A DNA stretch of 64,000 nt, taken from Psammoneis japonica (Eukaryota). Shown one piece after another: positions 1-56,718 of this stretch (the stretch's first letter is position 1; each line of letters opens with the position of its first letter). Position numbers and translations under genes: made by a program. The DNA is taken from the NCBI GenBank assembly GCA_008632985.1, contig QPGO01000107.1:62001-126000 (forward strand). The letters run 5' to 3'. Below the pieces are notes generated by a model that was given only the letters and a program-made list of their open reading frames with translations, did not search any database and had not been told where the DNA came from.

Positions 1-21
1 GGGCACCCATCTCACAATTCA

Positions 22-4235: not shown

Positions 4236-4443
4236 GGGGGAAGTCTCCAGCCAGCTGCTGGCTGAAAAAAGTCTGCTCATCAGTGCGTTTGGGGGGTTAT
4301 GCCAGTACAATTTTTACGTACGCAAAAGACGACGAGTCTGTCCAGCGTTCCCCAAAACCCCCTAATGCACAGATCGACAGATTCTTTCAGTACAAATTCT
4401 ACACAAGATTCTTCAGCCAGCAGCTGGCTGGAGACTTCCCCCC
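4236..4443. mobile_element. ~210-bp MITE with ~31-bp TIRs; second copy at 45189-49645
   Basis: gggggaagtctccagccagctgctggctgaa ... ttcagccagcagctggctggagacttccccc. The interior matches 45189-45365. Confidence 0.9.
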
Positions 4444-35700: not shown

Positions 35701-36018
35701 GTTGCCACAATGAAAACAGTTGCTAGCAGGTGAAGCAATTGGGACATGGGACCAGGCTTGGAATTGCCGGTGCCAAGCAATTGGTTCCCTTTTTCACTGT
35801 GTGCAGACCATGCTGCCAACGCGGAATGCTGCAAGCATTGCAAAAGCACTCGTGTCATTGGAGGAAGAGCCAACCCGAAAAAAATGTGCATGTGTTGTCT
35901 TCAGACATGAGGGAGAAACAAATGTTCCTCCTGAACATGTGTGTTTGCACGTGTGTCAGGATCAAATTATAAAATTCAAAATTGAAATTTTGGATGCAAT
36001 GGGACAACAGTGGGTGAA

Positions 36019-37300
36019 TCACATTGCGCAGAGAGGACATGTGGGAAGTGGACACATCCAATCAGCAAGAAAGAAATTAATCAAAGAGAATGGCACAGGT
36101 GCCGCCTTGTCAAGGGCTTGACAATGGGCCTGAGAAAGGCCCAAGCAGTTGCGGAGACAGGCTGCAAAGGCATCAGATTGCCATCTGAGCAGCCATTTAA
36201 TCTGCTCGGCATTGATGTTCATCTCATGAAGAATGTCACAGGCTCCAACATGGAGGGAGTGAGCCAACCATTTGCTGCAAGCTTTTTCATCCTTCACCAG
36301 GTTGAGGTGGCACACCTCTGTGGCAATTTGGTGCATGTGGGCCTTGATTTTCTCACAAGTGACAAGATGGCGGTGCTCACTCTCCTTTGGATCAAAGCAG
36401 AGAGCAAGGGGGCAAACCTTGTTGTCTTTGCCGCACACCCGCATGGAGCATTGGATTGCATGGAGCATCGGCTTTGCCAAGTTGTGAGCACCCATGAGAT
36501 TCAAGGCAAACTGGCATTCCTTGCCATTCTGCATGTTCTTCTGGGCTCATGCTCTTGACATCCTCTTGCTTGGGAACAAGACAACCAGCCCCGGTGTGTC
36601 GGTGCTTGTCTTTGGTGTCGCAGCGCACGTCATCAAGGCAGAATGCACAGGTCTCCTCAAAGATGTTTAGCCTGGGGTTCTCCAGGTCTGAGTGCTCATT
36701 GGACTGCTCCCATTCAACACTTTGCAGGCTGGCCATTAGACTGATCTCAAACCAGTCAGCAACAACCACCTTGATTGCATCCGGGTTGGTTTCTTGCACA
36801 GCATCTGCTGTCAAACGCACACGTTGTTGCATGAGCAACGTGTGTGACTTGCATCAGTCCGGGACCTTCTCATGCCATTGGAGCTCATCAAAAACTCCCT
36901 GGAGGATCCACCCCATCTCAGTGTCCACACTGTCATCCTTGCGGACATCCCAATGATTGGAACCAAACAGAGACACGAACGTGGAAATGTCGTGGATGTG
37001 TTCTTTGATGGCAGCTGAAGAGATGTTTTTACAGTGGACGGTGGCACCGGTTGCTGGATGCAATGCATGCATGGCTGGCACCAGTTGGCAGCACTTCAGG
37101 TCCTTGCCAACCACAGTCATTTCTGGATCTCCTGGGTGCCACTTCACACTCTTGCAAAAGTGGACAAAATGGACTCGGTGGGAACAAGCTGTCCCAAGTC
37201 ACTTGGGATCTGGGGTGCCATTCTGTGCTTGGCAGACAGCTGTGAGGAGAGGAGCTGCAGCAGTTCTTGACTCGGCTGGAAATGATCCCAGGTCTTCAGA
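36019..37300 (-). pseudogene. Tyrosine recombinase of the retroelement (degenerate)
   Basis: CPL..., HSLHVGAC..L......EQIKWLLRWQSDAFAACLR matches the DIRS YR HSLR.G...RW.S..F..YLR pattern. Confidence 0.8.
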
Positions 37301-37821
37301 AAGGGACACTTCCAAAACAGCTGTTCAGAATGGGCACAATGCAAGATCAAGGCAAAAACAGAAGGCAATGAAATGTCATCAGCAACAAAATTTTCATCGC
37401 CAAAGACATGATCGCCATTGAAGTTGGCACGCACACAGTGGAGCAATTCACAGAAAACCCAGACAAATTGTTGCCCCTGTGGTGACTTTGACATTGCTTT
37501 GTTGGACCTGTCAACCAATGCCACATTGTCCAAGCAACTCCTGATGACCAGGTGCAGTGGGACAAAGCCACCCCAGAAGAACTCATGAGCCCATTCTTGG
37601 GTCACAGTCTCCATGTGGACAATTGTTTCTGCCAGCTTGAGCATGATGACAACAAACTCTGCTGCACTGATGTGGACATGTTCTGGCTTGGAGGCCTTCC
37701 TCAGCTAAAGCCCTTTTGTGATGTTTGGTCCCCAGAGAAATGCAAACCAAAATTGGAGTTCAGCACAGCAGGCACCTCTGCCCACGTTGCTGATGTCTCC
37801 AATTGCTTGGCAATGGGGTGC

Positions 37822-39093
37822 TCATGATGTGACACACCCAATCAGCAATGTCCATGGTTCTGGCATGGACTCAACGCAGGATGCTTTTTCTTTGTCACAT
37901 GTCATCGGGATCTCGATCTTCAGCTTGTGGAGGAGCTGGGCTTCGGTGCGCATGAGTGAGCTTGGTGGCCCATTCTGGAGGTGACTCGGCAGTTGGGTTT
38001 CAAAATTTAATTTGAAACTTTGTTGCTCTATGATGCATTTGACAATGGCGCATTGGACAACCATGGCCCAGCGCACAGAAATCTTGAGTGCAAAAAAATT
38101 TGGCCAAGCCCATGGACAATGCCATGTGTGGAATTTATGTTGGCCATTCAGGTTTGATGCATCCAAAAGTGTGCAGCATTGCTTGTCGAGCCAATCTTGC
38201 AGAATTTCAAGGAACTGTTCCCATTTGCACAGGAGCATTCCCACCAACAGCGCTCCAGAGCTGAAGCACCTTCCCAGGGCTTGCCACAGATTTGAGCACA
38301 GTGCATCCAGTTTCTCTTTGCCAAGGAAATCCGGAGTTTCATCGCGTGGGAAACCCAACATGACCCACACTGCCAAGGCACTCACAGCAACGGTTGGATT
38401 CATCAAGTTGCGCATGTCACCATGGAAATTGTTGTCAACGTGGCGCTTGCATGTTGGTGGAAGGCGGTTTCCATCAAGGGACATGCCTGGATTGATGGCA
38501 TCTGCCTCCGCAGGACAGAACAATGCTGCCTCTTCAGCTGCAGGAGGTTTTGCAAATGATGTCATCAGCAGATGCTGCTGGGCAAGTTCCACCACATTGG
38601 GGACCAGCCAGAAGTGTTGAGCAAGGCATTGTTTTGCATTGGCAACAGCATCCCAGTTGCTGGGGTTGGTCTTGTCACCAAAGGTGCAACCTGTCTTGAG
38701 GACGCCAAGTCTGCCCTGGATGCCAGTGTGCATCCCGATGAGGTTTGGGTGGTGCTTCATGTTGCAGAAGGCGCCACTCACATCATCATTGCCAAGGTGG
38801 ATTTCCTTGCATGGGTGGGACATTCGCGTGTTCCAAAACCACACCACAAAGTCCACTTCTGCCAATGGGAACATGATCGGTGGTTCATGCTTCAGGTCCA
38901 GCACATCATCAATTGCCATGCCACCCGGAGTTGCTTGCATTGCACTGTCAAAGACAGTGCATGGGCTCTTGCATTTCTTGTCAAGATCCACCATCCCCCG
39001 AGGGGTGAGGCGGCAATTCAACAAGCATGGAATCAGACGCTGATTGAAAAGCAGTGTGAAACCCTCGCAATTGTTTTTAATGACTGCCACCAA
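37822..39093 (-). pseudogene. DIRS-order reverse transcriptase (degenerate)
   Basis: HLGNDDVSGAF, GCTFGDKTNPSNW, RHVDNNF. Confidence 0.75.
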
Positions 39094-42000
39094 TTTTTGT
39101 CAGGTGCAGTGTCCACAGTCTTGTGGTTTCTGCATTTCAAAGCTGCTTGGAAATTAGCTTCAGAAAAAGCAGCATTGCATTTTGCTGGTGCCCTGTCTTG
39201 GAAGATGCGGTGGACATGTGCCACTGTCTCATGTCTCATCGGGTGCACGACCTTGCACAAAACGGAGTGTTTTCTCTGTGCACTGGTGTTCACCAACGTG
39301 CGGTCCGTGCCAACCCAGTGGACTGGGTTTGCAGGGTTGCCATCAAAATGCAACAGCGCGGCAGTTGTCATTGCAGTTTGATCTGTGTTGACCACTGTCT
39401 CCTTTTGCCATCCCTTGGGGTGGCCTTGCAGAGGATTAAAGTCAACATTGCCATGTTCCCGGACCAGACTCATGAACTCAGCTGCTTCCGGGATGGCCGC
39501 TCCAAAGTTCTCCCAATTGTCACCAAAGATGATTTGGCCAGACAAGCCACTCATGCAATCAATGGGGGCAACAGACATCCAGACTGCAACAGTGGCAATG
39601 CACCCCGCTTTTCACCCTGAATCTTGGACACCAACAATGGGTGAGGTTTCGGGCACTTGGGAAACTTGCAGAAGCATCCCTTGGTGCAGAAACACATCCA
39701 AACACGCTCTTCCTGATCTGATCCTCTCTTCTTGTAGAAAACGGGGCAGGCAGGGAGGCACTTTGCACCCAAAAAGGCAAGCACACCCATCGCCTTGCAG
39801 AGCTTGGCAGTTTCATTGGCCGTTTCCTCCAATGCGTGGCTTCTTGTTGGGAGGTTGAGCAGACTTGGTCACATTGTCCTTCATGCTGCCAGCAGAGGGG
39901 AACACAGAGCTGCCTGGGGGGACAAGGGCGAGTGCAGATGCCTCAGCAAAAGAAAGAGGCTCACCCCGTGTTGTTGCAGTGTTGAGGTCTGCAACGAGGG
40001 ACTTGACCAGAGCTCAAGCATCCTTTGCCATCTGGTGGCTCAGTGGACGCTCGGTTTCAACCACCTGATGGTGCAGTGGAGAGTCCCCAATCTCAAAGTA
40101 AACCTTGATGACAGTCTAGAAATTGTCTGGGATGCCAGCGACCACTGGCTTGGGATCCTTGAGATTCTTGAGCCACGTGCAGCCCGGGTGCAACCAGAGA
40201 ACCTTTGCGCACACATCCAAGGACTTCCACAGCTTGGCATTGTCAAAATCCTTGATCCAACATCCAAAGACACAACAAAAGTTGCACAATGCCAACCACA
40301 AATTGCTGGCAGCATCCACCCTCCCTTGGATGTAAAGGTTGCTTTCCTTCACATCATCGGGGATCTTGCAGTCGGAGCCATCAGCGAGCACCTGATGGAG
40401 CATCCTCCCTTCCTCCTTGAGACTGGCAAAAGAAGATGATGCAGTCCTTGGCAGAAGAAAGGGGAGGATGGACAACTTCATGTGGTGCAAAGCCCAGCTG
40501 TGCTGCAGAGGCTTCTTGGCCACATGAAGCCATGGAAACAATCCATGCAGGCTTTGTTGACGACGGCGCACTTGCAGTGGACCCCAGCATCTAGACTGCC
40601 GTCACCACAGGCTGATGCAACAACAGCCATCTTCACAAGATCTGCAAGGTCACAGTTTGCATTGGCAGCTGATGCATCCTGCAGGATCTTGACTGCTTGG
40701 GGTCTGCAAGCTTGCCCACAATGATCATGGGCAGGTCCTCCGGACCTGTGCCAGCACCAGTTGCTTGGAGCGCACAGAGTGACCAGCGGCAACCAATGTC
40801 ATGCACCCTCAGCTTCTGGTCTGACTCTTTCTTTGAGCCCTGGTGAGGGACATTGATGGTGCAGTTTGGGACCTGACCATTGGTGCCTTGGGCTGGAGCA
40901 CCAAGAGCTTGCACCTGCACAGGCTCTTTGCCACCAAGTTGCTTCCATGTGTCATTTGCAAAGGCATCCATTGTGGCCTTGACTGGAGCATTCCAATCCA
41001 TCAGAGGTTGGAGCATCTGCACATCATTGTCATCAAGATCACAGATCTCAAGACCTGCAAACTCATCAATGACAGCAAAGACATTCTGCTCAAACATGGG
41101 GCTGCCTTCCGTGATGGAGAGACAGAAGCGTTGTGCTGCAGCAACCAGGCCATGCCCTTGGCCCAAACCGCTCTGAGCAGAAAGTCAGTGGCAAGGGATG
41201 CTGGGGGTTTGCTGGGTCAAAGTCAACAGGAAGGGTGATGCCTGTTGGGATTGGCAAGAACATTGGGAGTGCAACAACAGCAGGGTGCTCGGCCCGTCCA
41301 GTGGGATTCCCAAAGTGGAGACAACCCATCAACGCCGGCTCATTGTTGCCGTCATTGCTGACAGGACCGTCAATTTTGTCAGGGCTCAGTTTGCACTTGG
41401 GCAGGTGTTGCCAACAGGACCATGGCCTTGGAAATGAGTCCAGCGGCCAGACATTGGGATGACCTCACCAACTGCATCTGAGAGGCTCCCGATCCACCTC
41501 AGACTCCCATCAGTGTGCTGCCTGGGGTGAGGTTTTGCCACAACTGCAATCTTGCAATTGCAGACCATGTAGAAAAGGTCTGAGGTTGCAAAGACATGGT
41601 CACGAAGCTCCTTCTGGGTGTCATGGTGGACCGTCATTGAGACAGACTCGATCACACCCGTGGAGGAGGGCAAAGTGGCAGAGTGCCACTTCACAGCAGA
41701 CAGCTTGCCACGGTTGATGGCAGCAACATGGGCTTGGCTCATGGTGGAACAACAGGACATCAGAAAACCAAAGGCTTGTCAAATCTCTAAAAAGGAAAAG
41801 TGAGAACAATCACACTGGAAAGCAAAGGACACCAGCATGTGAAAATTGCTCGGGAAGGACAAGCGCTGGCTGATGTCATGTCAGTTCCGCAAACGCAACC
41901 CTCTCCAATTCCTGTGCTTGTCCAATGCACAAAAACAAAAAAGAGTCCAAGTTTCATTCCCACATCATGGGTCCATTTCCTTCACCATTTGTCATCGTGA

Positions 42001-42849
42001 TGGTGCGCATTTCACAAGAAGAACAAGAAAACCCCAAAAATGTGGTGGCAAATTTTGTTTTGACTGAACCCTCCCGGGAACGCATGTGTGCGCATGCAAT
42101 TGACATTGGCCAGACAGAGCTGGCAGCTCCAATCCAATGCAGCACATGAGCACATGAATCTGGATGTCCTGTGTCCCCAAGAGAGGGAAAAATTGGACAC
42201 ACCGAGAGGAAAGGTGATGACCATGGGCTGCAAAGCGGCAAAACGAGGGGCTTGACATGGGAGTTGAAGAACGAGCAACAAATGAACTGAAAAGCCATGC
42301 TGACATTGCCCATGTGAGACTTCAATGGCACTTAGACCACACACACCATTGAAAGGTGTGGCAAAACAGGCCAGAGTGTGAGACAATCCTCGGCCGTCGA
42401 AGCGGCGCCTGACGTGTTCCAGTCCCAGGTGACACACAAAATGACCATCCATTTTGAACACAAATGATTTGTCTCTCATGTGTGTGGCATTTGAATGTAA
42501 AACACTTGGGTGGATGGGCTTTTACAGGCACTTGGAGTGTGAACACACAAACAGTTTTTTCGTTGGTGTTCAATTCCTCATGGGACATGTGTCACAAACT
42601 CCCTCTGAAGACTGAATGCTGGCTGATTGTACGACAGCACATTGGACACTGATTTTCGGTTGCAGGTGGAACACCCACCAGAAGGTCTTGTAGAAAAATC
42701 ATTTAATTTGACACTCAAATGATGGCAACATTTTTGCCGAAAATCATCCGTTGTGTTGCAATTCGTTTGTCGCAATGAAAAACATTGTGAACAGCGTGAA
42801 AACAATGACATTGCAACACTGATGTGAGTCTTGTTGGTGTTGCAAAACA

Positions 42850-44260
42850 TTCAATTTTGGATGGATCTATTGGTTCCTCCTGTCTCAGGTGGAACTCTCC
42901 ACATCAAAGTTTGAAGCCGAAAGATTTTGGATTGCCGCCCTCGCTGCTGTCAGAAAATAGAGGCATGACGATTGCTTGCACCAATCATTTTGCTGCATTT
43001 TTCATCTAAGTGAGTTTTGCGCCGGGCGTCCGAATTAATTGTGACATGTGACGGTTGTTTTTTTTGAAACAGGGTGCCACAGCATGCACTTCTGCGCAAC
43101 TCATGCGACCTGACTAATTTGCGTTGGGGCCAGAGCAGTGCGTGGTGCTGGTTGTTTTCCTTCTGACCGTTCTGTCTTCTGTGAGGTTTCATGAGTTCAT
43201 CTGTGCACATTGATGTTGTCTAATTTGAGGTGCAGCGGCTTAATTGAAAGTCCAAGTGTGCAAAATTTACGCATTTTTACAGTTGTCTTTGCCAAACATT
43301 TAAGTTGTAACTTGCGCCCATTCCATTGTTTCTGTCCATGCTTGTTCCATGGGATCCTTGCTTGCTCCTTCTCCTGACCAGTGCCAGCGACCACCCCGCT
43401 TCGAAAGCCTCAACGGCGGTCTTGAAAATTTTGTTGGTCTGCGGCGTCGAGTCTGGGATGCCCCTCTTGCCGACTTCCATGCGGCACCTCCACACCCACT
43501 TGCAGTGTTCGCCGTGGGCATTGGCAATGGCTTCAGGGTTGCTCCTGATGCACCCCAGTTCTCCCAGCGCGGGGTGCCAGAGGTCGGGATGATTCGACGC
43601 ATCCTTCATCATGCACATGGCCTCCTGGAAATTTTCGGATTTTTTGTGCCGCCACAACCAGCCCCACAAATCGAGTGACGGATCGTTTGGGTCTGGATGT
43701 TGCTTTTCCACCTCTTCTTCCTCTTCCTCTTCCTCCATTGCTTTCGTGGCCACTTTGGCCGCAGGCTTGGCTGCCTCCTTGCTTTTGCTGCCGTAAAGAG
43801 CCAGGACCTCTGGTTTCAGGACGGTGGCCTGTCCACCCAAAACCTCGATCTTGCAACCAGCCAAAATGAGCTGCTTGGCGGTGTGACCCAGCTGCTGTGC
43901 TTGTTCTTTCAAACCACAAATTTGAAAGGTTGGCTCCGGCAGCACGGCTTTCTCCCTGTTTTCACTTTGGGGCTGTGCCGGCTTCTCCAAAATCCTTTCG
44001 CGTTCGGACTCGGCGGACACACCCTTGGCACTTCCTGCGGCGCCAAGTGCAGTCATGGCCACTGCCGCTGCAGTCATGCCTTCGGTGCCCGTGGGTTCTG
44101 CCGCAACTTCCGGAGCTGTCACGTCCTCTGCTTTGACAGATGGAGTGATGTTCTCCTCTGCCATTCTGCTGTTTCTAAAGCAACAACAATGACGTCGTGA
44201 TGACGAGGCGGCATGCTTGCTGCTGTGTGCTGTGTTCCAGGCATTGACGATCCCCATCCT
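42850..44260 (-). mobile_element. Insertion related to the 2694-3718 repeat tail, nested in the Ngaro-like element; ORF 43277-44257 of unknown function
   Basis: Reverse-complement homology to 3140-3715; both encode ...KHGQKQW; CpG retained, unlike the flanking DNA. Confidence 0.65.
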
Positions 44261-45737
44261 TCTACGTGCGTAAATGCATCACACCTTGCACCGAATTCGA
44301 CGTGCGCAATGCACCCTGCCGCTCCCGAGTTGCTCAACGGCCCGCCTCTGCTGCTTGTCGCGTGACAGCGCACGCCCTCACTGCTGGTGCATGGCATGTC
44401 TGCACCTGCATGCGTCGTCTGCACTGCATGCTGCGGCACCACAGCGCCACATCAAAACTTCGTTGATGTTTGTTTTTTGCTTTCTTTTCCTTTTCTCTTC
44501 TTCTTCTGGCTGGGAGGAACTGCTTGATGGCCTGGGTGTGCTTTTGGTGGTGAAAGCTTGTTTGTGAGTGAGAGACTGCGCAAAAATTGCACAAATGTCA
44601 TTTTTGTGCACGATTTGGGTCGCGTGTGGCTGGAACACATCCCCTGCTGTGAGCGGACCCAATCAGGATTTAGAGCAATGCCCACATGACATGGCGCCAA
44701 AATGGCATGACCGCAGTCAGCACAAATGGAAGAAAGGTGGGAGGTGCATCCACAGGATGGTGTGCTGAAATGGCGTGGTGACAACAGCGCCAATGCACGA
44801 GAGACTCCCGGCTGCAAAAGCAGACCACGTTGGGGATTTCTGATGTAGACTGACAGGGGGAGAGAAGAAACCATTCGATTTTCATCATTGGCATCTCCCA
44901 GGAGACGGCTCCGACAGCACCATGGTGTGTCCCACCCTGCCAGACAATGAGGGATCCCTTTGGCTGGCCTCGTTCCCGCGCCCGCTCGTCTCGTCTGTCA
45001 TCCGTCCTTCAACCCATTTCGCTCCTGCATTTGTGCGGTGGCCTCTCGGTCCAGTCAAGGAGGTCCTCTCCTTGCTGGGTTTAGAGGAGGAGTCTTGGCT
45101 GTGAAATGCCTCTCGCACAAAGCACGCAGAATTGCACGGCGAAGGCATTCTGCGAAAAGACAGCGCGGGGTTTGCCCTTCAGCTCTTTGGGGGAAGTCTC
45201 CAGCCAGCCAGCTGCTGGCTGAAAAAAGTCTGCTCGTCAGTGCGTTTGGGGGGTTTGCCAGTGGAATTTTCACGCACGCAAAAGACGATGAGTCTGTCCA
45301 GCGTTCACCAAAACCCCCTAACGCACAGATTGACAGACTCTTTCAGCACAAATTCTGCACAAGATCACCCCTGAGCAGGAGGGTTCTCGTGTCAGTTGGT
45401 TGGGTGTGCAGTGCTTGGTTGATTGCATGCAATGGTTCGAATTGTCTGGCATTTCATGCACAATCATGTTGACAATTTATCTTCGTAAATGTGTCCAATG
45501 TGACGAAGACAAGATACGAGCACGCCCAACTCCTTTTTCAGATTCACCCCTCTGCGCAATTCACACGGCCAAATGTTTGCGCATTGCTGTTTGAGGTAAA
45601 AATGTCACAGGGTTTGAGAGAGAGAGGTGTTTCTCTTTTTTTTTTTTTCTTCGACAACAACCTTCCGGGTTCCTCTCAATGGTCACGTGGAATCGCACAC
45701 AAAACAAGCACTAGAATTTACAATCGAGGATCAAAAC

Positions 45738-48329
45738 ATGCCGCTGTCAACCATGGCGAAGAACCGCCGCTCCGCTGCCAAGCGGCCCGCAACCAACCAA
45801 CCAGAACACAACAGTCGTGCTTCTAGTCGAGGTGCAAAGCGTTCTGCCTCCAAATTGGACTTTTCTGATCCTGAAGAGGACTCACAAAGCCCGCGAGAAG
45901 CCGAGGAGCCGCAGCCTCAGAAACTTGTCATTCACTTCAACAAAACCGTGTTTGTTCCAAGCAAAAAGGGATCATCCAAAGAACCAAAGCCAAAACTCTC
46001 CGAATTCAAGTTTGAAACTTTGAAGCCGAGTCGTCAGTTTGACACAGCTGCATCATTCACCGAGGAAACAGTGCCCCCCATCACTGCGCACATTGAAGCC
46101 GATGGTTGCTCCGCTTGCGACGAGCTTCCCGGCGGTGCATTCATGTTCACGAGATGCACCGGGAGGAAGACTGATTCCAACCGAGCAATGATGAAGGTAG
46201 AGGTTGTTGATTCAGATGCAAAGTGGTTTGAGAAAATCCATTTGGCAGCTCAAGAGTGTCAAGAGGAGCTGGACGGACCGCTGCATTGCGAAATCGACAT
46301 TGTTGCTGTGGCAGTGGAGGCCATTGCAGCTGAGGGTTCCAATGCATCTGGCTCATCCGTGGACTCTAATCTGTTGGAAGTTCCAAATGCACCAGAGATG
46401 CCGCTGAAGCTTTTGATGTCTTTCTTGGAGCCTGCTCAGAAAGACCCGAACGACTCTGCTCGTGTCACCTCAAAGACAACTCCGATTTGCGACGCAGAGT
46501 GCGATCTTTCGCGTTTCAAGCCAAACGGATCAGTGAGCACAAACCAAGATCTCTCTACATTCAAACTGCTTCATCTGAACAATCATGCCTGCCACCCATT
46601 CTCTTTTGTCATGCAGAGAAGTGAGGAGGACATGTCCCAGCTCTCGCACTCGGACCGCGATGACGACGACGACGACGAAACAGAGACTTTCACGTTGACA
46701 AGGTTTTTTCGTGATGTGGTCGAGCTTGCTGCATCAAATCCTAAACTGCAGAAGCACTGTGGGTGGGACAAGAGTGCGGTTGGGGAAGACTCCAAGTTGT
46801 GGTTCGCAAAGAACCACAGCTCGTCCGACCTGCAACTGTTCAACAATGGGGGGGAGGCCATGGAGTGCTTTCGTTCAGAAGCAGGCATCAAAAAACGAAT
46901 CAAGGCAGTCAAGAAAGAGAAATGCCTCAAGATCCGTCTCGCAATTGGTCTCATGAACGAACAAGACATCCCTCTCGAGCACGACAAGTTCCGCGTGGAT
47001 CCTCCATCATGCTCACAACCTGAATCGCAAGATGGCGAACCCCATCCAACTTTTTTGCCCGGAACAAAAATTGCACCACAAAGGGAATCGCAGCAGTCGA
47101 AAGACAGGCCGGTTGTCATTTCCACCTTCATTGAAAGTCCACAAGGAGACGCCGAGAGTCCGGCTCAACACGGAATGCTGAAGGAGCATGGGGACATGTT
47201 GTTCACCTGTTTTGCACATCCTTCACGGTTTAAAGAAGTTGAATCTGCAAAGTTGGAAGATTGTCCAGCTGACAAACTCAACAGAATTGTTCTTGGAGAC
47301 AGGCACAGCATCAAGAATTGTGGGGGTGTTCCAATCGAGAAGGGCAAATTCAAGAAGCGATGTGGAAAGTTTGTCACGCTGGCGGAACACAAACATGAGA
47401 ACCCGGACGAGACGGACACAAGAGGAGTGGCAGGAGGAGAGACAGGAGGATTGACAGGAGATGTGGCTGCACCATCTGTTCTTGGTCAATTCTTGTCTAA
47501 TCAACAATTGTTGCAGCTGGGCAGAGCGAATGTTCCAGTTGCACCTGCTCCTCAAGCTTCTGCTCCAGCTGCACCGGGGTGCCCAACTGAGTTGGTTGTC
47601 AAGCTCAAGCAAATGAAGCACCGCAATCGGCAAGACTTTCTTGTTCTCAATGAGGAACAGGCGAACACTGCGATGATCAACGATTTGCTTTCCATGCTTG
47701 AAGAAGAGAGCGAACCATTTGAGTTAGACCAGCACATTGAAGGCGAAGCGTGTTCAAAATTCTTTCTTCAAGTTGAAGGTGACGATGAACCTGTTTTGAT
47801 TGGGAAAGACAAAACAAATTCTTGGTCCATCTCGAAACTCCGGCGAGTTTTCAAATTGAAGGAATCATTTGATTTGTTGGCAGAGTTTGGTTCGGCACCA
47901 GCGAAAGACAAGCCACGCTTCCGCTTCAATCGCAAGACACTTTTAGAAGAACAGACATTGGGGACTCATCTTTTGCTGGTGCAGTGGCGAAATTGCTGCT
48001 CTGGACACTGCTCGAGACCAGATGTTTGCCAATCAAGTTGTCACCACTCAAAACTGGCTAGAGTGCGCCACTCGATGCGATGCGATAACACAAGCAGAGA
48101 CCATGCTAGACTTGACCACCCAACAGACCACACGACACAACTAGCTGGAGACTGGCCAGACCACACTGCTCGATGCGACACCACTGGAGACTGGACTGTG
48201 CTGCAGGAGACGACAGCACTCAAGATTGGATGTTCACTTCTTGGGCAATCAACCTTGAACACTCTAATTCTCCATCCCCGGCACCCCGCATTTTCGAAAG
48301 TGCTTCGCTGCTGTGTTGGGAGTCACTGA
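45738..48329 (+). CDS. Unknown transposon-borne protein; the true end is probably near 47950, with read-through after stop loss
   Basis: Long ORF with no Tyr and acidic/basic low-complexity tracts; no recognisable domain. Confidence 0.55.
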   Translation: MPLSTMAKNRRSAAKRPATNQPEHNSRASSRGAKRSASKLDFSDPEEDSQSPREAEEPQPQKLVIHFNKTVFVPSKKGSSKEPKPKLSEFKFETLKPSRQFDTAASFTEETVPPITAHIEADGCSACDELPGGAFMFTRCTGRKTDSNRAMMKVEVVDSDAKWFEKIHLAAQECQEELDGPLHCEIDIVAVAVEAIAAEGSNASGSSVDSNLLEVPNAPEMPLKLLMSFLEPAQKDPNDSARVTSKTTPICDAECDLSRFKPNGSVSTNQDLSTFKLLHLNNHACHPFSFVMQRSEEDMSQLSHSDRDDDDDDETETFTLTRFFRDVVELAASNPKLQKHCGWDKSAVGEDSKLWFAKNHSSSDLQLFNNGGEAMECFRSEAGIKKRIKAVKKEKCLKIRLAIGLMNEQDIPLEHDKFRVDPPSCSQPESQDGEPHPTFLPGTKIAPQRESQQSKDRPVVISTFIESPQGDAESPAQHGMLKEHGDMLFTCFAHPSRFKEVESAKLEDCPADKLNRIVLGDRHSIKNCGGVPIEKGKFKKRCGKFVTLAEHKHENPDETDTRGVAGGETGGLTGDVAAPSVLGQFLSNQQLLQLGRANVPVAPAPQASAPAAPGCPTELVVKLKQMKHRNRQDFLVLNEEQANTAMINDLLSMLEEESEPFELDQHIEGEACSKFFLQVEGDDEPVLIGKDKTNSWSISKLRRVFKLKESFDLLAEFGSAPAKDKPRFRFNRKTLLEEQTLGTHLLLVQWRNCCSGHCSRPDVCQSSCHHSKLARVRHSMRCDNTSRDHARLDHPTDHTTQLAGDWPDHTARCDTTGDWTVLQETTALKIGCSLLGQSTLNTLILHPRHPAFSKVLRCCVGSH

Positions 48330-49415
48330 AAGCAACGCCCCACAGTGCAAGTCTTGCCAATCCGCCTGATGACCCTCAAGTTGTCCATGGCGACGGAGGT
48401 GTGCTTCACACACTGAAAACATTTTTTCAATTGGATTGAGGTCGGGACTGCAGGGTGCAGTGTACAGCAACCTCGCGTTCTTCTTTTTCTCTGTCAATCG
48501 TTTGATGCGATGGTCAAAGTGCGTCGATGCGTTGTCCATCACTGCCACCGAATTTTTCTCTCCTTTTTCACAGTCACCCAGCTGTGGTGCCAAATGTGTT
48601 TCTGCCCATTCACAAAATCGGTCTGAGTCCACAGTTCCTGCTGCTCCCTCATCACTGACATTGTCTCTCCTGACGGTGTCACAAGCTTCAACAACAAACC
48701 CATTGATGTTGCAAGCTGCAAGGCATGTGTGGCACACTGCATCCTGGAACCATTTCTTCAAAACAAGGTCTTCGTTGCGCACCCCCCAAGCCCGATGGCG
48801 TCCAGCAGCATTCTTGTCTTTGTGTGTCTCGTCGCAAAAGATCACTTGACATGGGTCGAAAACAAAAAGTGCCAAAGCCACCTTGTGCTCATGTCGGAGT
48901 CGCTCGTTTCTCTCCCTTGCAACGGCAGCGTGTGTCTTTAGAGAGTGTCCCAATTTGTCATGAAGGGCTCTCCAGACAGTGGACGGATGAAACAGAGTCC
49001 CAGCTTCAACGCACAGATCGTGGACAAACTCATCAAGATGATGCTCAGGATTGCGCTCAAGAATCTTTCGAAGGGCTTCGACGTGCCTTGGACGAAAGTG
49101 CCGCCCTCCTTGCCAAGCCCCAGCGGACCGTCTCAAAAGTCTTTTCCACTCTCGTGACGTGTCGAATGGCAGTTCTCCATAAAAGAGACAGTGCTTGTGC
49201 CAACGCCGGAGTTGACGTGCACCAGTGCGAAACATCCTTGCGCCCTGCCTCAGCACGGCGGCGAGGCTTGCCGTGCCTGCCATCAGTTGGACCTGATCAA
49301 CAACGCATGCAGTGGCATCTCTTTGAGTCGTTCGGGATGCCTTTCCAAAAGCAAGCCCTGCTAGAGAGAGCAATGTGATGAAAAACGCGAACAAACGGAC
49401 CGGCTTCATTGCCAT
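48264..49415 (-). CDS. IS630/Tc1-like DDE transposase (DD35E), hypermutated
   Basis: HLDE...STVWRAL HTH, FCDET, VMDNASTH, APCSPDLNPIEKMF (=PYSPDLNPIE); 35 residues between the second D and E. Confidence 0.9.
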   Translation of the reverse strand: MAMKPVRLFAFFITLLSLAGLAFGKASRTTQRDATACVVDQVQLMAGTASLAAVLRQGARMFRTGARQLRRWHKHCLFYGELPFDTSREWKRLLRRSAGAWQGGRHFRPRHVEALRKILERNPEHHLDEFVHDLCVEAGTLFHPSTVWRALHDKLGHSLKTHAAVARERNERLRHEHKVALALFVFDPCQVIFCDETHKDKNAAGRHRAWGVRNEDLVLKKWFQDAVCHTCLAACNINGFVVEACDTVRRDNVSDEGAAGTVDSDRFCEWAETHLAPQLGDCEKGEKNSVAVMDNASTHFDHRIKRLTEKKKNARLLYTAPCSPDLNPIEKMFSVCEAHLRRHGQLEGHQADWQDLHCGALLSVTPNTAAKHFRKCGVPGMEN

Positions 49416-49711
49416 TGTTTCTGATCTTGTGGTGGCTGTTTCTCAAAATCTAGCACTTATTTTGTGTACGATTCTACGTGACTATTGAGAGGAACCCGGA
49501 AGGTTGTTGTCGAAGAAAAAAAAAAAAAAGAGAAACACCTCTCTCTCTCGAACCCTGTGACATTTTTCCCTCAAACAGCAATAGAGGCCCCTGCTCAGGG
49601 GTGACACAAGATTCTTCAGCCAGCAGCTGGCTGGAGACTTCCCCCTCCCCAGCCACATTGCTGCCTGCTCGCTCGTCGCATTTCGTGATTCGTTGCTCGC
49701 CGCTGTTGCTC

Positions 49712-50577
49712 ATGAGCCAGTGTCGGCACGTTAGTTTCAGCTCTACTATTGATTGGAGATTGGAGGACGAGAAGTCGTCCCGAAGAGTGATTCGCTTGAA
49801 AAGGAAGAACATGCTTGGCCCTGGACGTGACGATGGTAAGTTTCAAATGGCTCTCCACGGTCAGTCGCGTATTCGTGCTTCAGATGTTGACGCAACCCTC
49901 ACCCATCGTTTTACTTTTGCTGCAGACTTGATTGCAAGGAAAGCCTATGATTGGCTGATGAACCTCACTTCGCGGATGCCATTGGCGAGCTGTCAAAGCC
50001 AGGAAAAAGCATTTTGAAGCTTTTTTTCGAGGAAGTGTTACCAGACGAGTCACACATTCCCACGGCGGAGGAGGGTTGGCGCCTGTTCCACAGTCGTAGC
50101 CAAGAAATGAGCTTTGACGATCTCAACGAGGATGCCAAAGGTTTTCTAGGGAGTGCTTCCATTCATTTGCCACGTCCACCGGCAGCATCTCCTGCCCGGT
50201 CGGAAGCGAATTCGTCCCTCACGAACTCGATGGTGAGTGAGGATGTCCATTCCAATCAGCTTGACGCGGCATGGGAACATGCTGTGGAAGGCGCATACAA
50301 GATTGCAAACCGTAAAGGATTCGATGACACCGAGCTCAATCTGTGCATGGAAAGCACATTCCACACCGAAGAGTCCCAGTATGAGGTGGCTCTTGATACA
50401 GCTAAGCGCCGTTGGCAGAACGAACGAGTGGAAGAAGACGAGAATGCATCCACATCATCCATTCAAGATGCCATTGATGAGGCGGCTTGCAATGCGTTTT
50501 CTCGGTGGGCAAGCAAGAGGAATGTTTCGCAAGCAAAAATGGATGCCATGTATGGCAAAATCTTCAAAAAGCAGTGA
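49712..50577 (+). CDS. Hypothetical protein, probable intron 49836-49925
   Basis: 208-aa ORF with normal composition and an upstream gtaag...tgcag; the frame join is uncertain. Confidence 0.4.
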
Positions 50578-51038
50578 AGCTACAAGGTGCCCAAGGCAGA
50601 GATAATGTAGCGTTTTTGCTGCACAACTAGAATATAGTATGTGTCTATTATCCCCTCCACGAAGATTCTACTTCTTGCCCGCAAAACCCGCGTTCTAGAA
50701 AGTGGTGGAAATCCCAAGAACATTTCAGGTTTCTATCACAAGTCCAGCCGAACAACGGCTCGAAAGAGTGGACTATGAAGTACGAGGTTGATTTATATGA
50801 AGCTGAAGTCCCCAATCCAAATCAAGCATTCTAAATAAATTTTCAACGTTGTACAATACATCAGTAAGACGCTTATTTCTGTATTATTTTGATTCTCGCT
50901 ACAGCTGGTGGATTTCGATTCATGATTATTCCGTTCTTCTTCTTGTCCCCCGGAGACGAAGCGAACAAGCGAGCGAGCGAAGCACGCGCTCGGGCGGCAC
51001 GCACGCAAAAACTAACACAAAAAGTAAAGAAAGCGAAA

Positions 51039-53104
51039 ATGACAATGGTGTCTGCAACCCAAGCTTGGGCCATATTGGCTCGCCACGCACGGGATGAAAT
51101 TGCTCCCTTACGACTGCAAGAGCTCTGTCGCGATACTGACCGTGTCTCGTCCTTGGTAACGGTGTACAACACGAGTGAAACTGCTGCATCGTCCAAGAAT
51201 AAACGCAGGACGACACACGACGACGAAAATCGCATCCTCTTGGTGGATCTATCGAGACAAAGAATGACAATTGACACCATCAATCATTTGATGAGATTAT
51301 CGACATCTCGAAATGTAAAGGCATTCATCCAAAAGTTGGCGTGGGGACAAAACAATCCGAACGATCCGGTGGTTCCGAAAAGGTCTCGGCGTAACAACAA
51401 TGGATCGAGCACCGCCTTTGAAGACAATGATCGCTTTCGTCCAACTACTACTCCAGGGGATGACACGTCACCCAGTATGCACTTAGCTCTGAGAGCTCCT
51501 GCAGGTTGTGGCCTGGTCATGTTAACTGAGGATGGGCATAATGCGCTACATGACATACACTATGAGTGGGAACGAATTGAAATGCTCTCTGACTCGATTC
51601 GTAGAGGAAAGCTGAGAGGTGTCAGTGGAAGCGTCCTTCACGATGTACTAGTAGTTGGCAGTGGAGTCCCCGTCATGGCGTTACGATTTATATACCAGGC
51701 ATTACTCCATGACAAAACAGCTCATAATGCAACCACGGCTGTGGATGGAGAGGGTGGTCGACATCGACGAGCGGCAGGGGGTCCAAGGCGACGTCTTCGT
51801 TTTCTTTCCTCCGTCGACCCGATTGCGTCATCGTCAGCTCTATCCGGCCTTGACCCTAATTCCACGATTGTTTTTGTCAGTGATTTGCAGGGTAACGAGG
51901 AAGTCGACCATGTCACTCGAACAGCAAAGAGCTGGTTGTTGCAAGGTCTCGGTACGAACAAGAGACCAGACCTCATCTTTCACAAGCATCTGATGCTTTG
52001 CACTGGGAACAAGGATGTCGCTACTGGCTACACACCAGAGAGTGTATTTTTGATACCTGAACATTCTCGGTGTGAGGCGTTCACAACATTTACACCTGCG
52101 ACGTTACTCGTAAGTGGTTGATTTTCGTACAATCGCTCTCAATTGTGGCATAAACGCCTGTACTCATCCTAATTGATGGCATGCATAACGCAAAGCCTCT
52201 ATCTATTGTGTTTGGTTGGAAACTTGTGGAGCAGTTTTTGTCCGGTGCGCATGACATGGATACACACTTTGTTGAGACAAATCCACGGCATAATCTCCCC
52301 GTGTTGCTGGCTTTATCTGATGTTTGGAATGATAAATGTCTTGGTTCAGCTGGTCGAGTCGTGACTCCTTTTACAGAATCCCTTTCAGCATTTCCCTCAT
52401 TTGTCGCTGCCCTCGAGGCCCAGACTTGTGGCAGAAAGCCCGACGACGGTGTGGTAGATGGACAATCCTGCTGTGCAATAGTGACGGACGGCGGACTTTG
52501 CGGTGTTTATGATCGTGCACTCTATCAGAGTGGACGTGTGGCGTCTGCCGAACTTGTAATGACAATGGACACTCAGGCCACAACCACGTACTCTGCTGAG
52601 TTGGGACTGGAAGGTGTGGATGGAGTGTTAGCAAGTCAAGATGCTCTAATGTGCTCGTTGTTTGCTCACGCGGACACAATGGCGTTTGGGACAGAAGGGT
52701 ACTCATCGACACGGCGAACGACTGAAATGTTTGGCTCCGGGTCTCCGAGCAACGCGGCGACCGCGAACTCTGACGTTACCGAGGGAAATCGACCAAGTTC
52801 AATCCTAATGTGTGGGAAATGCGATGCCTTCACGTGTGGGCAGTTGGTGGCGTTGTCTGAGCATCGAGCTGTCGTCAAGGCTCATTTATTGGGTGTTGAC
52901 CCATTTGTAACTTCGATAGGATCATCACTTCGAACGACTTCATTCGACAAACTAAAAGAAGAGCTTCAAAAGATGTACTCCAAGCCCGTTGGAGAAAGTG
53001 ATGATGAGAATGATCTCCCTGACTTGAATCTGTCAACTTCCACAATCCTCGGGCATTACGCCAACCTTATGCGCGATCAGAGAATATACACTGTAAAAAG
53101 TTAA
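51039..53104 (+). CDS. Divergent glucose-6-phosphate isomerase-like protein; intron 52110-52195
   Basis: LLVDLSRQ, MHLALRAP, IRRGKLRGVSG, FLSSVDP, FLSGAHDMDTHF, NLPVLLAL, GNRPS, GQLVALSEHR. Confidence 0.8.
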
Positions 53105-53138
53105 TGAACTAGCTTTCTTCTCATATCAGAAACGATAT

Positions 53139-54116
53139 TCATATCCGCACCTCCTTCCTATCATGATCGTTGCTAGTACCATTCATTTGCCATTTCGGGT
53201 CAAAGAACCCCTCAACGCCTACACGGAAATCCAGGCTGACCCTTGTGTATTTCGTTTCATTAGCATTCACATAGTGTCGACAAGAACTACCGTGGAACGA
53301 AACAACTTCACCGTAGTCAGCCGGAATGGGGTGGTAATCGCCGAGGTTGGCGGAGGACTCGCACCATAGATCGACTCCGGTTACTGGGCTCGTCAGTGGT
53401 AACCAAAAGTTAAGCTCGCCATTCTGGTGGCCATACTCTGCATCATTGTGAGCTTTCACAATCGACCTCGCAGGACCTGGCTGCAATCGCATGGTCGGAG
53501 GCCGCTGATAGTAGAATGTCTGTTTTGCTGCATCTGATTCAAGTGTTCCTATCGATACAAGGCGACTCTTGAGATGTGGCAGAATCACCTCAACAACAAA
53601 CCGGTCAAAGACGTTAAGAAATTGCTCGTCCGACAAAGTGGCGTCAGATAGATAGGATTGGGCTGACTCACAATGACCACCATAGCTTGTACGAGAAAGT
53701 GATTCTTGTGGAACATGAAAATCTTCCAACCGGTAACTTTTTCCATCGTCAACAGTATTTCGAAAGTATCCAATCATTTCATTGTCACATTTCTCCAACA
53801 AACTGACAACGACTTTTTGAAAATCGTAGACGGACACGTCAAACGTGAGCTTTGTCTCCTTACAAAGCTCCTGTGGTAAAAACGTGGTTCCGGTCTCTTT
53901 CCCATCGCTGTTCTTGGGCCTTGGATTATGCTTTCGTTTGCTTAACGGAGCTTTCACGCGATGCGCCGACGATCGAAGTGTTGCAATTCCTGTCTTGTAC
54001 GCATACTCCACGGCTTCTTTTTTGTCCGATTTTGAAGGCATCGTGTCTTGTGCTAATGAGGTCGCCTCATTCTCTCCATTGTGTCCATTGTTCAGATTCC
54101 CACTTGATGCCTCCAT
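53139..54116 (-). CDS. StrG-like / 2OG-Fe(II) dioxygenase-fold protein
   Basis: YQRPPTMR, HNDAEYGHQNGELNFWLPLT (HxD), FHGSSCRH, TRVSLDFRV. Confidence 0.7.
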   Translation of the reverse strand: MEASSGNLNNGHNGENEATSLAQDTMPSKSDKKEAVEYAYKTGIATLRSSAHRVKAPLSKRKHNPRPKNSDGKETGTTFLPQELCKETKLTFDVSVYDFQKVVVSLLEKCDNEMIGYFRNTVDDGKSYRLEDFHVPQESLSRTSYGGHCESAQSYLSDATLSDEQFLNVFDRFVVEVILPHLKSRLVSIGTLESDAAKQTFYYQRPPTMRLQPGPARSIVKAHNDAEYGHQNGELNFWLPLTSPVTGVDLWCESSANLGDYHPIPADYGEVVSFHGSSCRHYVNANETKYTRVSLDFRVGVEGFFDPKWQMNGTSNDHDRKEVRI

Positions 54117-54622
54117 AACGTTCGGGGTCCAATCCCTGAATCTGAAGTAAACGATGGGTGGGCGAGTTACACAACACACTCGCTTCAATCTGCCCAATCT
54201 AAATCTTCAGAGATCCTCCAGAAATCTTCCAATCACCGAGAGTCGACTCTAGTAGAGAGTAGAGTAGCGCCGGTGCTCTTTTGGCTACCGTAGACTAATG
54301 GCTGATGAAAACGGTACACACAGCAGATAGACAGCAGTGTGCGGGGACTCCTCGTGGTGCTCGCTCGTCGCTCATTATCCTGTATTCTGTATTCAAATAT
54401 ACATTCTGGTATGTTTTTGCCACGTTGAATATCTTGCCTCCGACACACGTGGAGCTGCATATGTGTTCTACGTGATTTTGAAAATTTGGAAAAGCCAGAT
54501 CTTTTGCGTGCGAAATTAATGCGCTCTCGCTTCCACACAACACACAACGCCACCACGCCGAAAACGATTGCAAACAACATTGCGGCCTGCTTCCGTTAGC
54601 TCCACGCTCCACTCTGTGCACC

Positions 54623-55942
54623 ATGGACGCCCTTTCGACCTTCCTCGATGAGTCATATCACGTAACGCTTGGCGTTTGCGTCCTGTCGCTGTTGCTTGCG
54701 GGACAGTTTGATAATCACCTCTGGAGGCTCATCGTCATTGGCGTCTATTGCGTTGTGTCCGTGCGAGTCTTGCCTACTCAGTTCTCTGTTCCTGCCTTGC
54801 CTTGGTGGGGAATCTTGCTTGTTTCGTACCAACTCATGCATATCCCTCACCTTCGAAGGCGCCAGAAAAAGAAAGGTATTGTTTTCTCATTTGAACTGTT
54901 ACTCAAGCGTACACAAGAATTGCCATGGCGACCCCTCGGGACTAACACACAAACGTTTCCCTTTTCGTTTCAAATAGGATGCATTTTTGTGACAGGCGCC
55001 GACTCTGGAATGGGACAAGCAACTGTCGTTCACCTGGCCAAGACAAATGACCCCAAGAATGGGTCCTCCTACGATCGTATCTTTGCCGGTGCATTCGACT
55101 CCAAAAAAGCCCTCAGTAATCTCGAGCAACTCTGTGCCGCGAACAATGCTGATTTTTCCAAAATCAAAGTGGTACCTCTTGATGTTACAAGCGACAAGAG
55201 CGTTGCGGATGCGGCTGCTCTGGTGAAGAAAGAAATACCGTCGGACTCCATTGGCCTCACGGCTCTAATCAACTATCACGGGATTGGCTCCAACGGACCA
55301 GTTGCATACATGCCAGTGTCGATGTACCTGCAACAGCATGATGTAAACTACATTGGAAACGTTCGCATGACGCAGAATTTCCTACCTCTTCTCAAAGCCG
55401 CATCTAGTACTGGTCACAGAGGAAGAATTATCTTTACGGGAACGGGTGGCGGCCCGTGCTCTCCCTGCCCGTCTCTTTTGAGTGCGTACATGAGCAGCAA
55501 GTTTGCGTGCGAGGCATTTGCTCAATCGCTCAGCATGGAACTCATCATGACGGGTATGCCCATTGACGTTGCGGTCTTGAATCCTGGCTTTGTCAAGCCA
55601 ACCGCACTGATTGAAGAAGGCAAGAAGCTTTCGGAAAGAATGTGGAAGGAGTGCGAAGACAAATTGGGTAGTACCGTAGCAAAGGACGAATATGGCCCCA
55701 TGCTCGACCACTTTTTAAAGTATGCCGCTGCACTTCCGGGAGCGCACGTGTCGGAGGTGTGTCAAGCAGCCGAAAACGCTTTGACGGCGTTTAGGCCGCG
55801 GAGCAGTTACAAGATTGGCATTGATTCCAAACTTGCTCCAATTGTTGGTATGCTTCCGACAGGTGTGAGAACAAAGATTTCCCTAAATGGTATTTACGGT
55901 GTGTTGAGCCCTGCGGGTACTGTGAATGGATATGTTGTTTAG
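54623..55942 (+). CDS. Short-chain dehydrogenase/reductase (retinol/hydroxysteroid DH-like) with N-terminal TM segments; probable in-frame intron 54876-54977
   Basis: VTGADSGMG, LDVT, YMSSK, NPGF. Confidence 0.88.
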   Translation: MDALSTFLDESYHVTLGVCVLSLLLAGQFDNHLWRLIVIGVYCVVSVRVLPTQFSVPALPWWGILLVSYQLMHIPHLRRRQKKKGIVFSFELLLKRTQELPWRPLGTNTQTFPFSFQIGCIFVTGADSGMGQATVVHLAKTNDPKNGSSYDRIFAGAFDSKKALSNLEQLCAANNADFSKIKVVPLDVTSDKSVADAAALVKKEIPSDSIGLTALINYHGIGSNGPVAYMPVSMYLQQHDVNYIGNVRMTQNFLPLLKAASSTGHRGRIIFTGTGGGPCSPCPSLLSAYMSSKFACEAFAQSLSMELIMTGMPIDVAVLNPGFVKPTALIEEGKKLSERMWKECEDKLGSTVAKDEYGPMLDHFLKYAAALPGAHVSEVCQAAENALTAFRPRSSYKIGIDSKLAPIVGMLPTGVRTKISLNGIYGVLSPAGTVNGYVV

Positions 55943-56718
55943 CATTCTGAATAGGATTCCAAATCTCACGCTTCAAGACGTCCGAAATGGGCATCCCATG
56001 TAGCCTTCTCAGTACTTATAGTCCCTTGTTTCTCTCGATGATCATTTGTTTGCCTACCTGGCTCGTCCCATGGTTGAATAATCAGTGATAATGCAGATAG
56101 AACTAAAAGAAATACATATATTCTATGGTGTATAAATTCAAGATGACCTCTCGATAAACCGTTTTGGTTTCAGTCAGCGAAACCCCGTTCTGCATAGCGT
56201 TTGGTACAAATCAAGGATTAAAAATTTCGTACGTACTTCACCGTGCTAAAAAATATAAACCGTTTCCTCGCTCACGAGAAATCTAATGACATGCATTGAC
56301 AACTCTGAGGCCTGAAAACACCACGTACAAGCTAGCGAGTATCTTGCACTGGTTGCCTTTGCCGTAATCTCTATATGGGGAGTGGACTCTCCTTTCTATA
56401 ATATATTATTGAAATAGTCGTACCCTGAAGTGTTTTATGTATACTATCACGTCACTACCTTAATAGTTTTTAGATAAATCGGTGCAACTTTGGCGCATCA
56501 CGGCTCATAGTAGTAGCCTATCGGAGATGATGAGCCAAGTTACTGAAAGCTAAAAAATGAATCTGATTAAATGTAAGATTGGAGAAAAAATTGAAGAATG
56601 AAATGTACAGAGGGTCCCTACTGAACCACAATCATAGAAATATGGATGAAATGCATGATGAAAACCTTGATGACCTTGAAGATACCCTCACCGGCCATCA
56701 ACAGCGGAGCGACTCGAC

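Follow-up and report, generated by a model that had tools for sequence, protein, structure and literature searches.

The element and its surroundings

We examined a 64,000-nucleotide window of DNA from Psammoneis japonica (contig QPGO01000107.1, forward-strand positions 62,001 to 126,000), in which a Tc1-like transposon, referred to here as the element, lies at the end of a long domain that is almost devoid of TA dinucleotides. The two terminal inverted repeats (TIRs) of the element differ from one another mostly at TA sites. They probably do so because a process turning TA into CA or TG swept through the element and its left end but ended some 150 bases before reaching its right end. The features on which this reading is based are collected in Table 1, in window coordinates.

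Table 1 Coordinates of the element, its surroundings and the nearest host gene.
Feature	Position	Strand	Description
Domain deeply depleted in TpA and enriched in CpA/TpG	32001–49440		Element forms its right end
Older repeat around the MITE-like unit	45188–45365 and 49604–49645		Contiguous copy at 4235–4442
MITE-like repeat hosting the element	45366–45581 and 49584–49604		~236 bp
Left target-site duplicate	45582–45583		Now CA (presumed TA with T>C)
Whole element	45584–49581		3998 bp; Tc1-like (DDE_3), probable TA target duplication
Left TIR	45584–45719	+	TIR proper 45584–45715 (132 nt), then tail 45716–45719
Second open reading frame of the element	45738–48329	+	863 aa; convergent to the transposase gene
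Tc1-like DDE transposase gene	48264–49415	−	383 aa, open frame; PF13358 DDE_3
Right TIR	49445–49581	−	Arm matching the left, 49581–49449 (133 nt)
Five surviving TAs of the inner right TIR	49451–49484		At 49451, 49458, 49467, 49475 and 49483
Right target-site duplicate	49582–49583		TA
42-nt unit, very high-copy	49604–49645		Identical to 4401–4442; near-palindromic
Host phosphoglucose isomerase (PGI) gene	50922–53104	+	Two open reading frames, normal TA content

The predicted transposase matches the DDE_3 family (E 1.8e-14; 54 bits, cut-off 28.6), and its residues D195, D294 and E330 fall in invariant columns of an alignment with 33 near-full-length homologs, which were chosen from the best 150 of 1808 relatives found at E ≤ 0.001 in a representative library. 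The source record of one homolog calls it a diatom Tc1-like transposase, and protein searches found no relative closer than 46% identity. A DDE/D transposase of the Tc1/IS630 type and TIRs, both features of Tc1/mariner-type elements, are thus present together. The protein of the second open reading frame (ORF), containing 0 tyrosine, 33 histidine and 28 cysteine residues, has no Pfam match, no usable Atlas hit or neighbour and no related protein at E ≤ 0.001. The frame stays open for 903 codons, whereas none of 500 composition-matched simulations went beyond 391, indicating that it was a real gene. This copy of the element is inactivated through missense changes.

Tc1/IS630-type elements duplicate a TA at their target. 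Beyond the two target duplicates, the left and right flanks of the element are unrelated in a global alignment, and a contig from another copy of the flanking repeat, apparently carrying the empty site, joins 45581 directly to 49582, reading GCG-TA-GAGG with a single TA. Its shorter side comprises only 22 letters, and it gives weak evidence that is consistent with, but does not prove, a duplicated TA with one T>C change on the left. The insertion is nested: the element sits in a repeat resembling a miniature inverted-repeat transposable element (MITE), with 15-nt inverted ends at 45365–45379 and 49590–49604, and the copy of the surrounding older repeat at 4235–4442 lacks 45366–49603. The original prediction had placed the right TIR next to a host gene; it instead abuts the remnants of these two older repeats, and the PGI ORF begins at 50922, ~1.3 kb away. 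Among contigs from a single sample (three runs, X1–X3) aligned to the locus, depth is 7784 in the bin holding the 42-nt unit (49516–49662) versus 28 in the next bin, and over the near-palindromic unit it reaches up to about 31,865.

Differences between the two terminal inverted repeats

Global alignment and self-BLAST of the TIR arms (45584–45715 against 49581–49449) show 92.8% identity over 138 aligned columns, with eight substituted positions and one 1-nt indel within a run of T. The original prediction relied on two 39-nt stretches, 45677–45715 on the left and the reverse complement of 49449–49487 on the right, which form the inner parts of the TIRs and whose letters are exactly as it gave them. 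Four single sites in these stretches read TA on the right: positions 45681 and 45689 are each G on the left and A on the right (TGG versus TAG), 45696 is C versus T (GCA versus GTA) and 45705 is C versus T (ACA versus ATA). The adjacent positions 45709–10 are CA on the left and TG on the right, and the remaining substitutions are TG on the left versus CG on the right at 45615 and a T/G transversion at 45597. Present or putative TA sites therefore hold six of the eight substitutions, including all six within the 39 nt, which bears out the statement that the TIRs differ almost entirely at such sites.

Four TAs have been lost from the inner left TIR, or five if the CA/TG site was once TA, and the left TIR proper retains only the TA of a CTAG motif and an outer TA at 45597, with a third TA, at 45719, in the tail. 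The inner right TIR retains five of six. As first noted, CTAG is common to both TIRs (TA at 45712 and 49451). Within the right arm, 10 of the 133 positions lie within a TA, and the probability that at least four of the seven transitions fall there is 9e-4; allowing either direction, the same test gives 0.023, before demanding that all four point one way. Since TIRs and target duplicates are identical at the time of insertion, the pair constitutes a natural before-and-after record of a mutator. The target duplicate adds one TA-versus-CA site to those listed originally.

It is very unlikely that the TIRs of this family always differed at these positions and that the asymmetry was simply inherited from the source copy. 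Many transposon families do have imperfect TIRs, and exact-pattern scans of metagenome contigs and viral contigs with two conserved TIR motifs returned 0 matches, which means that no other copies were found in the public collections scanned. Inheritance would nevertheless have to account for four of seven transitions, all pointing the same way, at the 10 positions of a 133-nt arm that lie in a TA (p about 1e-3), for a target duplicate that lies outside the element and is equally asymmetric, and for the same asymmetry in two unrelated repeat pairs elsewhere in the window, described below.

Direction of change

Taken by itself, the TIR pair leaves the change unpolarised, and the direction rests on evidence from outside the TIRs. 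The tyrosine codons, the target duplicate, a PGI pseudo-copy and the repeat pairs all agree with the original claim that the four TAs were converted in the left TIR, and not created in the right. In the transposase alignment, eight columns carry tyrosine in at least half of the 33 homologs; the transposase of the element has histidine in four of these, cysteine in three and tyrosine in one, so that seven of the eight conserved tyrosines are replaced by the products of TAY>CAY and TAY>TGY changes (Y, pyrimidine). Tyrosine content is 0.5% in this protein versus 2.3–6.5% in the homologs. At the target site TA is presumably ancestral, because Tc1-type elements duplicate TA: the right duplicate conforms and the left, now CA, deviates. 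Counted on both strands and in all frames, the stop triplets of the element are 169 TGA, 25 TAG and 14 TAA, and dead genes in depleted DNA keep very long, tyrosine-less open frames because the process destroys TAA and TAG.

A partial copy of the PGI gene at the left edge of the depleted block (31878–32743, 69% identical to 51204–52043) allows a comparison with its host counterpart. None of the 23 host TA sites is still TA in the pseudo-copy, where 11 read TG, 4 read CA and 8 are otherwise changed, while 53 of the 64 host CA sites (83%) and 43 of the 54 host TG sites (80%) are kept. Host CG sites (50) are found as CG in 3 cases, CA in 20 and TG in 18. With its host counterpart, the pseudo-copy preserves within the window itself a roughly polarised history of two decay processes, that of TA and that of CpG.

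Both processes bear on TIR site 45709–10, which the original prediction had described as one ancestral dinucleotide resolved in opposite directions. The site is present as described, and its letters fit an ancestral TA and an ancestral CG alike. If a TA had been struck on one strand in one TIR and on the other strand in its partner, exactly CA versus TG would result, and discordant pairs of this kind recur between copies of the family (three of the 40 differences listed, below). We consider this origin considerably more probable than CG, because the element has lost ~90% of its TAs but only ~1/5 of its CpGs. In terms of observed/expected ratios (o/e), CpG is mildly reduced in the element (0.75) compared with TpA (0.09).

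Two further repeat pairs in the window have one member inside depleted DNA and the other outside it. An inverted pair (13795–13972 and 17618–17795) straddles the edge of a second depleted block at 14.3–20.6 kb; the outside arm has seven TAs and the inside arm one, and at 6 of the 18 differing columns TA stands against TG or CA, with TA always on the outside. The pair is 178 nt in length and spans 4.0 kb end to end, and may have arisen when a promoter or 5′ region was duplicated in inverted orientation, in which case its arms would not be transposon TIRs; the TA-poor DNA between them contains kinase-like ORFs (15889–17226, minus strand). The second pair is formed by the older repeat around the element, in which 45188–45365, within the domain, has one TA versus seven in the copy at 4235–4409, in host context. 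Four or five of its 12 substitutions are TA versus TG or CA, and the reverse pattern never occurs.

Copies of the element's family with at least 80% likeness were drawn from the contigs of the three runs (383 in X1, 9 in X2 and none in X3). Among the 40 of 419 differences to these copies that were listed, the window has CA or TG where TA occurs elsewhere at six single sites, CA stands against TG at three double sites, and the window never has TA where other copies have CA or TG. Overall, A>G or T>C change confined to TpA was found in the TIR pair (four single sites), the target duplicate, the PGI pseudo-copy and the tyrosine codons.

That the ancestral TIRs carried TG and CA, and that the right TIR gained its TAs by C>T change at CpA/TpG through repeat-induced point mutation (RIP) or deamination of 5-methylcytosine (5mC) outside CpG, is highly improbable. 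Every TA-versus-CA/TG difference is equally a C/T or G/A transition in a TIR pair that is itself unpolarised, and in two contigs from other copies the TIR attached to right-end interior sequence is left-like, as such a history would allow. The product would, however, be the opposite of what is seen, since the element and the domain are nearly TA-free (TpA o/e 0.08–0.09), conserved tyrosine codons have been lost and not gained, the left target duplicate departs from the TA dictated by the transposition mechanism, and TA is the state outside the domain in every polarised comparison.

We regard as barely credible an origin at the RNA level, in which an ADAR-like activity edited A to I in double-stranded transcripts and the edited copies were returned to DNA, with no DNA mutator involved. 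ADAR favours U 5′ of the edited A, as discussed in a preprint on Bigelowiella natans (10.64898/2026.01.13.699255), and the convergent ORFs and TIRs of the element could form double-stranded RNA. A cut-and-paste DNA transposon of the DDE_3 type nevertheless has no RNA intermediate; moreover, the target duplicate, the MITE-like repeat, the older-repeat copy and the PGI pseudogene have all been changed in place, and both strands are affected.

The edge of the depleted domain

Dividing the window into 128 segments of 500 bp, we found TpA o/e (observed/expected TpA) below 0.2 in 64 segments and at or above 0.4, which we term host-like, in 50, with 14 in between. The depleted segments form blocks at 1–3400, 14.3–20.6 kb, 32.0–49.4 kb and 58.6–64 kb, with TpA o/e of 0.04–0.2 and CpA/TpG of 1.4–1.9; several blocks reach a TpA o/e of 0.04–0.07 with CA/TG of 1.7–1.9. 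CpG o/e falls to 0.1–0.35 in the older depleted blocks, for example at 32–42 kb. The blocks contain the DDE transposase, an ORF for a PIF1-like helicase and pseudogene copies.

At the right end of the 32.0–49.4 kb block, TpA o/e is 0.08 from 32001 to 45581 and 0.09 over the element without its last 141 bp (45584–49440; 21 TAs in 3857 bp). It then rises to 0.39 in the last 141 bp of the element (49441–49581), stands at 0.29 in the right flank (49584–50600) and reaches 0.62 in the host block beyond (50601–58400). The whole element contains 26 TAs versus roughly 240 predicted from its base composition. The last sparse TA lies at 49362 and a cluster of five begins at 49451, and the data support an end of the deep depletion between 49363 and 49450, inside the element. 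The boundary within the element that had been predicted is thus found for the deep depletion, but the flank is itself half depleted, so that the transition is a step plus a gradient: beyond the step, ~1 kb of DNA is partially depleted and not normal.

The second inverted pair shows a similar edge at the 14.3–20.6 kb block, where TAs follow one another closely as far as 14183 and become sparse at 14334 and beyond. Furthermore, the older-repeat copy at 4235–4442, which lies in host context, has retained its TAs despite the extremely high copy number of one part of it, which shows that repeat status is insufficient for attack. Judging from these patterns, targeting would follow position within a silenced chromatin or repeat domain, and not the element as a unit, with decay at edges that face unique DNA.

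Alternatively, there may be no spatial boundary at all, if, once the sweep was over, gene conversion or repair restored the right end from a copy carrying fewer mutations, or if the right 140 bp were assembled from another copy at a low-complexity stretch. This is unlikely, although the family has many copies (383 contigs at the likeness given above), contigs break at the GA- and T-run stretches 45615–45663 and 49501–49550, and no listed piece spans the whole stretch. A positional gradient is in keeping with the TA in the right target duplicate and with a unique flank that is half depleted, the outer right TIR is continuous with the flank of this very locus, and the second inverted pair likewise spares the arm that lies at its domain edge.

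Sequence context of surviving TA sites

We compared the bases flanking the 145 TAs that survive in depleted segments with those flanking 1020 TAs in host-like segments. Y-TA-R (R, purine) accounts for 72 (50%) of the former versus 154 (15%) of the latter (odds ratio 5.5, p 5e-19), and R-TA-Y for 10 (7%) versus 320 (31%; p 1e-11); CTAG alone contributes 17 versus 39 (p 2e-4). Y-TA-R is therefore resistant and R-TA-Y vulnerable. Expressed as representation among the survivors of the depleted blocks, Y-TA-R is 3.1–3.4 times over-represented, and ATAC and ATAT stand at about 0.1 times.

This general resistance explains why CTAG is found in both TIRs. It does not explain the asymmetry between them, because four of the five TAs kept on the right are in non-resistant contexts (ATAG, GTAG, GTAC and ATAA) and their left counterparts have been converted.

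The contexts compared are symmetric, and survivor counts cannot separate an effect of the base 5′ of T from one of the base 3′ of A. At polarised informative sites, the strand that would have been deaminated reads Y-T-A-Y in 11 cases and R-T-A-R in 4 (7 versus 1 in the PGI pair, the rest in the TIRs and target duplicate and the inverted pair), which is suggestive of a preference for a pyrimidine 3′ of the target A. Between 45582 and 49040, the products at 22 sites fall into 8 strand-coordinated runs versus 12 expected, a difference that is not significant (z about −1.75); same-strand runs may reflect processive events on a single strand. The order of products along the element is CA / TG TG / CA x5 / TG x4 / ... 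/ CA x3 / TG x4.

Other features of the window

Recognisable host ORFs, for an aminotransferase, a major facilitator superfamily (MFS) transporter, RNase P p30, a short-chain dehydrogenase and PGI, lie in TA-normal DNA. Every named best hit of the aminotransferase is a diatom (63–79% identity), and the first Atlas cluster of the MFS transporter is commonest in Bacillariophyta. These matches point to a diatom genome and speak against Bigelowiella, the host of the published signature discussed below, as its source.

The depleted block at the start of the window contains a 639-aa ORF with a PIF1-like helicase domain (22–1941, plus strand), possibly a gene of a Helitron-type or other mobile element. 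Two smaller depleted patches were also seen. One, at 8001–8600, coincides with a 229-bp tandem duplication (8235–8463 and 8464–8689, 87% identical; region 8001–8689), with 0 TAs in its first unit and three in its second, within surroundings that are host-like and intergenic. The other, at 24801–25600, is an isolated stretch of ~800 bp without a repeat partner inside the window.

A proposed sequence of events

We propose that, on the margin of a repeat-rich region in a diatom genome, a Tc1-like transposon integrated at a TA within a short repeat that was already there, and that its two 133-nt TIRs would have been essentially identical at that time. A later process acting in situ would have changed TpA into TpG or CpA, by A>G on either strand, and nearly reached saturation across 32.0–49.4 kb. 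It would have removed ~90% of the TAs of the element, turned tyrosine codons into those for histidine or cysteine and eliminated stops of the TAA and TAG kind. On the left, the target duplicate and four or five TAs of the inner TIR would have been converted. Intensity would have fallen sharply at 49363–49450, leaving the right inner TIR with five of its six TAs and the right duplicate as TA, and CTAG would have been spared in both TIRs as a poor substrate of the pyrimidine-TA-purine type. The chemistry underlying the observed differences, their direction, the domain structure and the context bias may be enzymatic adenine deamination in 5′-TA-3′ DNA, by analogy with the proposal made for B. natans.

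Several observations weigh against this account. The flank at 49584–50600 is itself TA-poor (0.29 versus 0.62), and the survival of five of six TAs in the inner right TIR is not clearly above the level of that flank. The PGI pair is polarised only roughly, as the two copies are 69% identical and the host copy has changed too, and it contains A>G changes at AC and AT as well, perhaps through ordinary divergence. Decay of CpG to TpG or CpA also acts here (38 of the 50 CpGs in the PGI pseudo-copy; TIR site 45615), and could have produced the CA/TG site from CG. The joints of the empty site carry just 21–22 letters on their shorter side. The 40 of 419 family-copy differences that were listed include no TIR position and so do not bear on the family consensus of the TIRs. 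Finally, two contigs on opposite strands (45701>49435 and 45719>49420) join left-TIR-like sequence to the interior beside the right TIR, and so the right TIRs of some copies appear closer to the left TIR of this element, as expected if those copies were mutated, but also from a left-like consensus.

With the preferred account of conversion up to an internal edge, the TIR pair would capture a TA-to-CA/TG process that works in place on DNA, on both strands and with flanking-base preferences, and that stops at a position and not at the border of the element. More broadly, we tentatively suggest that diatoms might possess a defence that resembles RIP in form and is opposite in chemistry, namely adenine deamination at TpA on either strand, aimed at silenced repeat domains, favouring R-TA-Y over Y-TA-R, and with edges of ~100 bp, sharp enough for one to lie within a transposon and spare one of its TIRs. 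Saturation of the signature in a diatom-like genome suggests that such a defence is widespread and has been overlooked. If this is correct, pairs of TIRs, long terminal repeats and target duplications would serve as built-in clocks of the activity of the process. There is also a practical consequence: gene callers are likely to annotate the long, tyrosine-less frames of dead transposons as proteins, and homology searches may miss them.

Comparison with known systems

Like members of the Tc1/mariner (IS630-Tc1-mariner) group, the element combines a DDE_3 transposase, TIRs and a probable TA target duplication; it departs from the usual form in its length of 4 kb, its 133-nt TIRs and its convergent 863-aa second ORF, to which no family is assigned. 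Loss of CpG in the same domains resembles 5mC deamination in silenced repeats, but deamination of 5mC at CpG cannot yield differences of TA versus CA or TG.

The signature shares with ascomycete RIP a dinucleotide-specific transition hypermutation that riddles repeats, kills transposase genes and can reach adjacent sequence. RIP, however, changes C to T at CpA and makes TpA, whereas here TpA is destroyed and CpA and TpG are made: in place of the TpA excess and CpA/TpG deficit of RIP, we found a TpA o/e of 0.04–0.09 and a CA/TG of 1.4–1.9. Unlike in RIP, stops are erased and not created, so that dead genes keep long frames, and a short high-copy repeat in host context retains its TAs.

The closest parallel comes from the chlorarachniophyte B. 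natans, and the data support a signature of the same kind as that described in 2026 for this one rhizarian alga, here in a new lineage. According to the main text of that preprint, de novo A>G and T>C changes occur only at TpA in an integrated giant virus and virophage (Mettrop et al., bioRxiv 10.64898/2026.01.13.699255), and the genome has 124 clusters depleted in TpA and enriched in CpA+TpG, in which DDE endonuclease and reverse-transcriptase domains are enriched among the depleted genes (10.64898/2026.01.13.699255). Its authors read the process as genome defence, possibly by adenine deamination, with an ADAT2-like deaminase as a candidate effector only (10.64898/2026.01.13.699255). Outside subscription journals, a full-text literature search turned up no description of either TpA hypermutation or TpA-depleted transposons in a diatom. 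The terms 'inverted repeat', 'context', 'boundar' and 'CTAG' have 0 occurrences in the main text of the B. natans preprint, whose supplementary tables may hold flanking context.

The two systems have in common change of TpA to TpG or CpA only, clustered regions depleted in TpA and enriched in CpA+TpG, and DDE transposase genes among them. They differ in that the host genes here are diatom-like, and in that the B. natans record comes from mutation-accumulation lines, whereas ours is historical and read from sequence alone. Depletion is also deeper here (o/e 0.04–0.09 versus 0.45 for the insert of the giant virus, a nucleocytoplasmic large DNA virus, NCLDV), and strong CpG loss is coupled to it in the older blocks. 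If a defence of this kind does operate in diatoms, then, taken with B. natans, it would imply that TpA editing of invading DNA is ancient as a defence, or has evolved repeatedly, across the SAR (stramenopiles, alveolates and Rhizaria) supergroup. To the picture given in the B. natans preprint, the present locus adds action in place, seen in the target duplicate, a flanking-base rule and an edge that falls within an element.

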